Shown here: piece after piece, positions 18,801-19,287 of the stretch
Numbering within the stretch: the stretch's first letter is position 1
How the letters are laid out: every line of letters begins with the position of its first letter
NCBI RefSeq assembly: GCF_001677475.2
Contig: NZ_CP015229.1
Length of the DNA stretch: 64,000 nucleotides
Strand: one strand, 5' to 3'
DNA from: Escherichia coli
GTDB lineage: Bacteria > Pseudomonadota > Gammaproteobacteria > Enterobacterales > Enterobacteriaceae
Made by a program: the position numbers

Positions 18801-19287
18801 GCCAGCCGCGATCCTGCATGGTGTTGAGCAGGGTGCGCATATGACGACGCGAGCAGCTCAATAACGCTGCCAGTTCGTTGAGCGTTGTGTCCTGCGATTT
18901 ACCCTCGCAGCATTGCCACAGGCGGATGAACTGTTGTTGCAGACGAGCAGATGGCATAAAAGGGGAACTCCTGCGCAAAAGTCAGCAATTTTATTTTCCC
19001 TATATTAAGTCAATAATTCCTAACGATGAAGCAAGGAGGTGCCCCATGCGTCAGTTTTATCAGCACTATTTTACCGCGACAGCGAAGTTGTGCTGGTTGC
19101 GTTGGTTAAGCGTCCCACAACGATTAACCATGCTTGAAGAGCTGATGCAGTGGGAGGGGAGTCATTCTGACTACTGATTTGCGGACATCATGTGTGACTG
19201 AGTATTGGTGTTAATCGCCACGCCAGCAGTGATTATCTGCTGGCTTTTTTCTTTTTGGCGATTGAGTGCCGGACGGTGTACAAACTA

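Follow-up and report, generated by a model that had tools for sequence, protein, structure and literature searches.

In the response to sugar-phosphate stress, SgrR induces the small RNA SgrS, which represses ptsG and other targets, while SgrT blocks PtsG. The locus of Escherichia coli K-12 has the order sgrR-sgrS-setA-leuD (Sun and Vanderpool, 2011, as cited in PMC4021124), and SgrR was shown to activate setA, located just 3' of sgrS, with the role of SetA in the stress response remaining unclear (2014 review, PMC4021124). SgrS of K-12 is merely 88% identical to SgrS of CFT073 and O157:H7 Sakai (Horler and Vanderpool, 2009, PMC2760817). The same study reports that the sgrT start codon is mutated in O157:H7, draws setA in its synteny figure and attributes to the AGGGGG variant of K-12 a stem-loop by which translation of sgrT is inhibited. 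That E. coli strains differ in the presence or absence of setA is already known from publications, and the A/B1 sublineage of E. coli was found to have acquired the gene (González-Alba et al., 2019, PMC6896753).

We analyzed this locus in a 64,000-nucleotide stretch of an E. coli genome (NZ_CP015229.1), referred to as the window. Judged by its sequence, the window contains the SgrR-SgrS-SgrT glucose-phosphate stress module, as the small RNA, a divergent sgrR, the base-pairing core, the terminator and sgrT are all found. The features from sgrR to leuD are the following:

17299-18957, minus strand: sgrR, transcriptional activator of sgrS, an intact open reading frame
19025-19251, plus strand: SgrS small RNA (Rfam RF00534), of the CFT073/E2348-69 sequence type
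19046-19177, plus strand: sgrT, an intact 43-codon open reading frame inside SgrS, with ATG at 19046 and the ribosome-binding site AGGAGG
19135-19480, no strand: haplotype block tied to the presence or absence of setA, from a sliding-window comparison with K-12
19192-19211, plus strand: SgrS base-pairing core GTGTGACTGAGTATTGGTGT, 20 nt, 3' of sgrT
19222-19251, plus strand: SgrS intrinsic terminator, an 8-bp stem GCCAGCAG/CTGCTGGC followed by a T-tract, from a terminator scan and folding
19252-19284, no strand: spacer of 33 nt, the setA-less junction
19285-19890, minus strand: leuD, an intact open reading frame of 201 amino acids, convergent with sgrS

The sgrR gene lies directly upstream of sgrS on the divergent strand, and its product is 99% identical to K-12 SgrR over residues 1-551 (tblastn). 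SgrS matches RF00534 over its full length (228.9 bits against a gathering score of 37, model positions 1-232), and the open reading frame homologous to sgrT carries the annotation "sgrT" in E2348/69. The core has the same letters in K-12 and in the 48 species loci recovered by an exact-pattern scan, the GC-rich terminator hairpin (19222-19244) is followed by TTTTTTCTTTTT, and LeuD is 97% identical to its K-12 counterpart. A preliminary description of this DNA had called SgrR, SgrS and SgrT intact, in agreement with the SgrR identity, the full-length Rfam match and the 43 codons of sgrT with their ATG.

K-12 carries the 1179-nt setA gene exactly at this place, between sgrS and leuD as the preliminary description stated, and its observation that the gene is missing here was borne out: SgrS ends at 19251, the leuD stop codon lies at 19285, and the approximately 35 bp that it gave from the T-tract to the stop codon correspond to a measured spacer of 33 nt. 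A tblastn search with K-12 SetA likewise recovered no SetA-like open reading frame in the 64-kb window (best match E = 0.47 over 33 amino acids), as had been stated, and blastn-short with the DNA of the setA region gave chance matches of 12-22 nt only. A MAFFT alignment that put fragments of the spacer inside setA was rejected as an artefact. The alignment to K-12 that had been suggested as a check was carried out with blastn; the window is collinear with K-12 except for K-12 positions 77593-78853 (setA and its spacers), which have no counterpart, and it is shorter by 1.26 kb at this site. Neither a direct repeat nor a setA remnant was found at the sgrS-leuD junction.

To place this junction among E. 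coli strains, we surveyed 5426 complete RefSeq genomes. A 2.5-kb query across the junction found the sgrR-leuD locus in 5399 of them; in a spread sample of the matches, some were contiguous with no setA annotated (e.g. E2348/69, O157 and an APEC-like chicken isolate) and others were split by setA (e.g. K-12 derivatives and O111). The setA gene occurs in 3241 of the 5426 genomes. A 151-nt query comprising the SgrS 3' end, the spacer and the leuD 3' end, counted at a coverage of at least 80%, found an uninterrupted match of 96-100% identity in 2143 genomes, among them ST131, APEC and O157:H7; one match was 100% identical. Together the two classes amount to approximately the whole collection. Because the complete genomes partition almost perfectly in this way, a copy of setA elsewhere in the genome, beyond the window, is unlikely. 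The annotation of E2348/69 lists sgrR, sgrT and leuD with nothing between sgrT and leuD. Outside the main body of E. coli, leuD follows sgrS directly in E. albertii (L004), E. whittamii (L028), Escherichia sp. E1V33 (L027) and the divergent 'E. coli' SCPM-O-B-8794 (L010), and all four spacers align base for base with that of the window, sharing the sequence CTTTTTGGCGATTGAGT(GC)CGGACGGYGTACAAACTAA. E. fergusonii, E. marmotae and E. ruysiae are absent by name from the results of the SgrS-core scan from which these loci were taken. The setA-less junction is the standard allele in about 40% of complete E. coli genomes and in at least four other Escherichia species, and the strain of the window inherited it rather than having newly lost the gene. 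These counts also bear on an assembly collapse or misassembly that took out setA, which the preliminary description had allowed for: beyond the absence as such nothing speaks for it, and it is hardly conceivable given that the same junction is present in thousands of independently finished genomes including E2348/69, 2143 by the junction query, and that the 3' sequence of SgrS in the window is of the type always found with the setA-less junction.

The closest described loci are those of CFT073, E2348/69 and O157:H7 Sakai, which are setA-less (PMC2760817) and have the gene order of the window, the same SgrS 3' variant, the same type of SgrT C-terminus and the 33-nt junction. E2348/69 is identical to the window over 19160-19300, including the 3' part of SgrS, in which K-12 is approximately 20% different. 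The window departs from this reference type in a few substitutions in sgrT and, compared with O157:H7, in which the sgrT start codon is mutated (PMC2760817), in having that codon intact. K-12 is nearly identical to the window in sgrR, the sgrS promoter, the 5' two-thirds of SgrS/sgrT and the core; it differs in its 1179-nt setA, in the SgrT C-terminus (EELMQWEGSHSDY in the window, EGLMQWDDRNSES in K-12), in the stem and loop of the terminator, in the LeuD C-terminus (AFMN in K-12, AFMR in the window) and in having its own hairpin between setA and leuD. The ribosome-binding site of sgrT reads AGGAGG in the window and in all other Escherichia aligned, as against AGGGGG in K-12 (19030-19045). Since the window lacks the inhibitory stem-loop variant (Horler and Vanderpool, PMC2760817), SgrT is probably better translated in this strain than in K-12.

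A sliding-window comparison with K-12 delimits these differences more sharply. The promoter, the greater part of sgrR and sgrT up to its 90th nucleotide show 0-2 differences per 50 nt, while the left flank from the breakpoint near 19135 to the end of SgrS (19143-19242) shows 11-14 and the right flank, the first 50-100 nt of leuD (19285-19384), shows 7-10; to the right of 19384 the number falls to 4 per 50 nt up to about 19480 and then to 0-2. The flanks of the two alleles are diverged by approximately 20%, over about 115 nt to the left of the junction and 100-200 nt to its right. The block alters the C-terminus of SgrT, the stem and loop of the terminator and the final residues of LeuD. Over the first 100 nt of leuD, the distance between the two alleles is similar to that separating either of them from Citrobacter or Salmonella. 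If a K-12-like ancestor had recently lost setA by a deletion specific to the strain or clone, this would account for the position of the gene in K-12, exactly here, and for the missing 1.26 kb, but this reading is disfavoured because a recent deletion from K-12-like sequence would not give flanks that are about 20% divergent in a sharply bounded block. The identical junction recurs in 2143 of the complete E. coli genomes as well as in four further Escherichia species, and it shows neither a direct repeat nor a remnant of setA; we consider such a deletion exceedingly unlikely. Of the setA loss put forward in the preliminary description, the absence of the gene from an otherwise intact module stands, but the interpretation that this genome lost it relative to K-12 is not supported, as the junction is standard in about 40% of E. 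coli and its flanks are about 20% different.

To determine the polarity of the change, we scanned one genome per GTDB species with the 20-nt SgrS core pattern, which gave the 48 loci mentioned above. In all of the approximately 40 non-Escherichia species with enough downstream sequence setA lies 87-250 nt past the core, and most of these loci also have leuD past setA. The genera concerned include Citrobacter (many species), Salmonella (S. enterica subsp. arizonae and diarizonae), Klebsiella, Raoultella, Enterobacter, Pluralibacter, Atlantibacter, Siccibacter and Superficieibacter, with SetA proteins that are 75-89% identical in amino acid sequence to K-12 SetA. Because setA follows sgrS in these species, sgrS-setA-leuD is the ancestral order for the family. 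In Citrobacter, S. enterica arizonae/diarizonae, Klebsiella and Enterobacter the SgrS core and terminator are conserved as in the window, whose segment 'TTAATCGCC(A/G)CGCCAGCAG' is of the Citrobacter type; unlike the window, they carry setA after sgrS and REP-like hairpins between setA and leuD. Among the individual loci, setA of Citrobacter amalonaticus (L023, 5029-6205) is split between two reading frames near codon 28, due to either a frameshift or a sequencing error, and extra DNA separates setA from leuD in C. portucalensis (L047, about 3.5 kb) and Superficieibacter (L017, about 1.7 kb).

Traces of the ancestral order may remain in the spacer. Its left 8 nt or so, directly behind the T-tract, can be aligned to the spacer that separates sgrS from setA in Citrobacter and Salmonella. 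Its right 25 nt or so (TGCCGGA...ACAAACTAA) are similar to part of the REP-like hairpin found in Citrobacter between setA and leuD, namely to its distal arm and tail. We tentatively place the endpoints of the setA deletion within the spacer on the strength of these short sequences. They also bear on the opposite polarity, namely that Enterobacteriaceae originally lacked setA and that other lineages gained it by insertion 3' of sgrS. This would agree with the behavior of setA as an acquired gene inside E. coli (PMC6896753); however, setA has the same position and orientation in about 40 species of at least 10 genera, the identity of SetA to the K-12 protein ranks across the outgroup genera roughly as that of SgrR does, and the spacer keeps an apparent part of the setA-leuD hairpin, which makes an ancestral absence highly unlikely. 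Since the four Escherichia species carry the spacer sequence of the window, we infer that the common junction is best explained by a single deletion in an early ancestor. Instead of going back to one ancestor, the setA-less alleles could in principle also have been passed among Escherichia species by recombination, but in pairwise comparison their divergence roughly tracks the divergence of the species. Speaking of a loss would be correct at the level of the family only, in the sense that an ancestor of Escherichia deleted setA.

It is the K-12 gene order that is exceptional within Escherichia. Of the 3241 E. coli genomes with setA, 3228 have a copy that is at least 99% identical. In Escherichia sp. 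MOD1-EC7003, sgrR is 4-10% diverged from K-12, yet from the same left breakpoint in sgrT into setA the divergence drops to 1% or less (L048, approximately 13195-13692 in the sgrS-forward orientation, which is the reverse complement of the stored locus). Because sgrR of this strain is diverged while its setA block is nearly identical to that of K-12, the block has, on this comparison, moved between Escherichia species by recombination. As for its origin, no non-Escherichia SetA among the 48 species loci exceeds 89% identity to K-12 SetA at full length, and a search of 5.8 billion proteins for a donor gave, among the matches listed, near-identical E. coli SetA variants only. As SetA identities follow the rank order of SgrR and the sampled genera hold no close relative, the reservoir of K-12 setA was probably an Escherichia-like lineage.

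In a different reading, setA would be ancestral in E. coli and either lost repeatedly or replaced by a deletion allele imported from another Escherichia species; the lineage of the window would then have lost the gene after all, though in an event common to many strains. K-12 SetA is indeed about as far from each outgroup genus as SgrR is, which fits a gene of the Escherichia lineage rather than an import from one of the sampled genera. Against this, setA alleles are nearly invariant, at 99% identity or more in almost all E. coli carriers and 1% divergence or less in another species, setA-less alleles are mutually diverged at species level, and a published reconstruction infers a gain in A/B1 (PMC6896753); we regard an ancestral setA in E. 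coli as very unlikely. The evidence instead argues strongly that the window carries an ordinary setA-less allele, which very probably goes back to one deletion event that removed setA from an early ancestor of the genus and has been vertically inherited since, whereas the K-12-type block would have spread recently by homologous recombination through phylogroups A and B1 and would also have entered at least one other Escherichia species.

In the strain of the window, SgrR would activate the sgrS promoter, and SgrS, with an intact SgrT open reading frame and an unchanged core, would stop at its own terminator 33 nt from the leuD stop codon. The stress response of this strain would consist of the small RNA and SgrT, without an efflux pump expressed by read-through, and would resemble that of B2, E and other non-A/B1 E. 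coli. K-12 would then not represent the default state, the SgrR regulon including setA in A/B1 E. coli only and probably, going by published SgrT, in Shigella as well, while about 40% of E. coli together with other Escherichia species would mount a glucose-phosphate stress response without setA. Annotation by comparison with K-12 will go on calling the setA-less junction a loss. The setA block may serve as an example of the exchange of a gene cassette by flanking homology that includes another Escherichia species.

In setA-less Escherichia, sgrS and the leu operon are convergent and 33 nt apart. A terminator scan placed a terminator on the plus strand and found no terminator-like site on the leu strand. 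The SgrS terminator is flanked by the two arms of an inverted repeat, AATCGCC...GGCGATT, which folds on either strand (z-scores of -1.9 and -2.4) and in E. albertii contains a mismatch that is not compensated. A bidirectional terminator was considered and demoted to a low-probability case, given the plus-strand terminator only, the modest z-scores and the E. albertii mismatch. There is a slim chance that leuABCD transcripts read through antisense over the SgrS terminator and core, or that the 3' structure of SgrS serves as the 3' end of the leu operon. If so, transcription for leucine biosynthesis would be coupled to the level of SgrS, and setA in K-12 would insulate against such coupling.

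Several further features of the window were observed. Compared with K-12 it has a 1010-nt insertion at 16295-17304, between the thiB TPP riboswitch and the sgrR stop codon, with an open reading frame of 189 amino acids (16500-17069, plus strand) that is annotated as the type III secretion effector EspY2 in other genomes; the espY2 insertion upstream of sgrR is present in 1034 of the 5426 complete E. coli genomes and missing from K-12 and E2348/69. At the far end, from about 62396 to 64000, past aroP, lies the start of a gene that the annotation of a close relative names as type VI secretion tube protein TssD (evolved Hcp). K-12 is not known to have a type VI secretion gene at this position. 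The best match among complete RefSeq E. coli genomes is 97.5% identical for window positions 1-25000 and 98.5% for 40000-64000, identities that are unusually low for an E. coli core region and suggest a deep-branching lineage, for example a cryptic clade. In the araD-araA spacer (7383-7476) a repeat is single in the window, and K-12 has an extra tandem copy of about 85 nt, seen as overlapping blastn HSPs. Three Rfam matches exceed their gathering scores (45659-45748, 51395-51464 and 51868-51945): 'PssrA', named as a Shigella plasmid small RNA, at the chromosomal ftsA-ftsZ junction; STnc40, overlapping the 3' end of secA and the secA-mutT spacer; and naRNA4, overlapping the 3' end of mutT and the spacer beyond.
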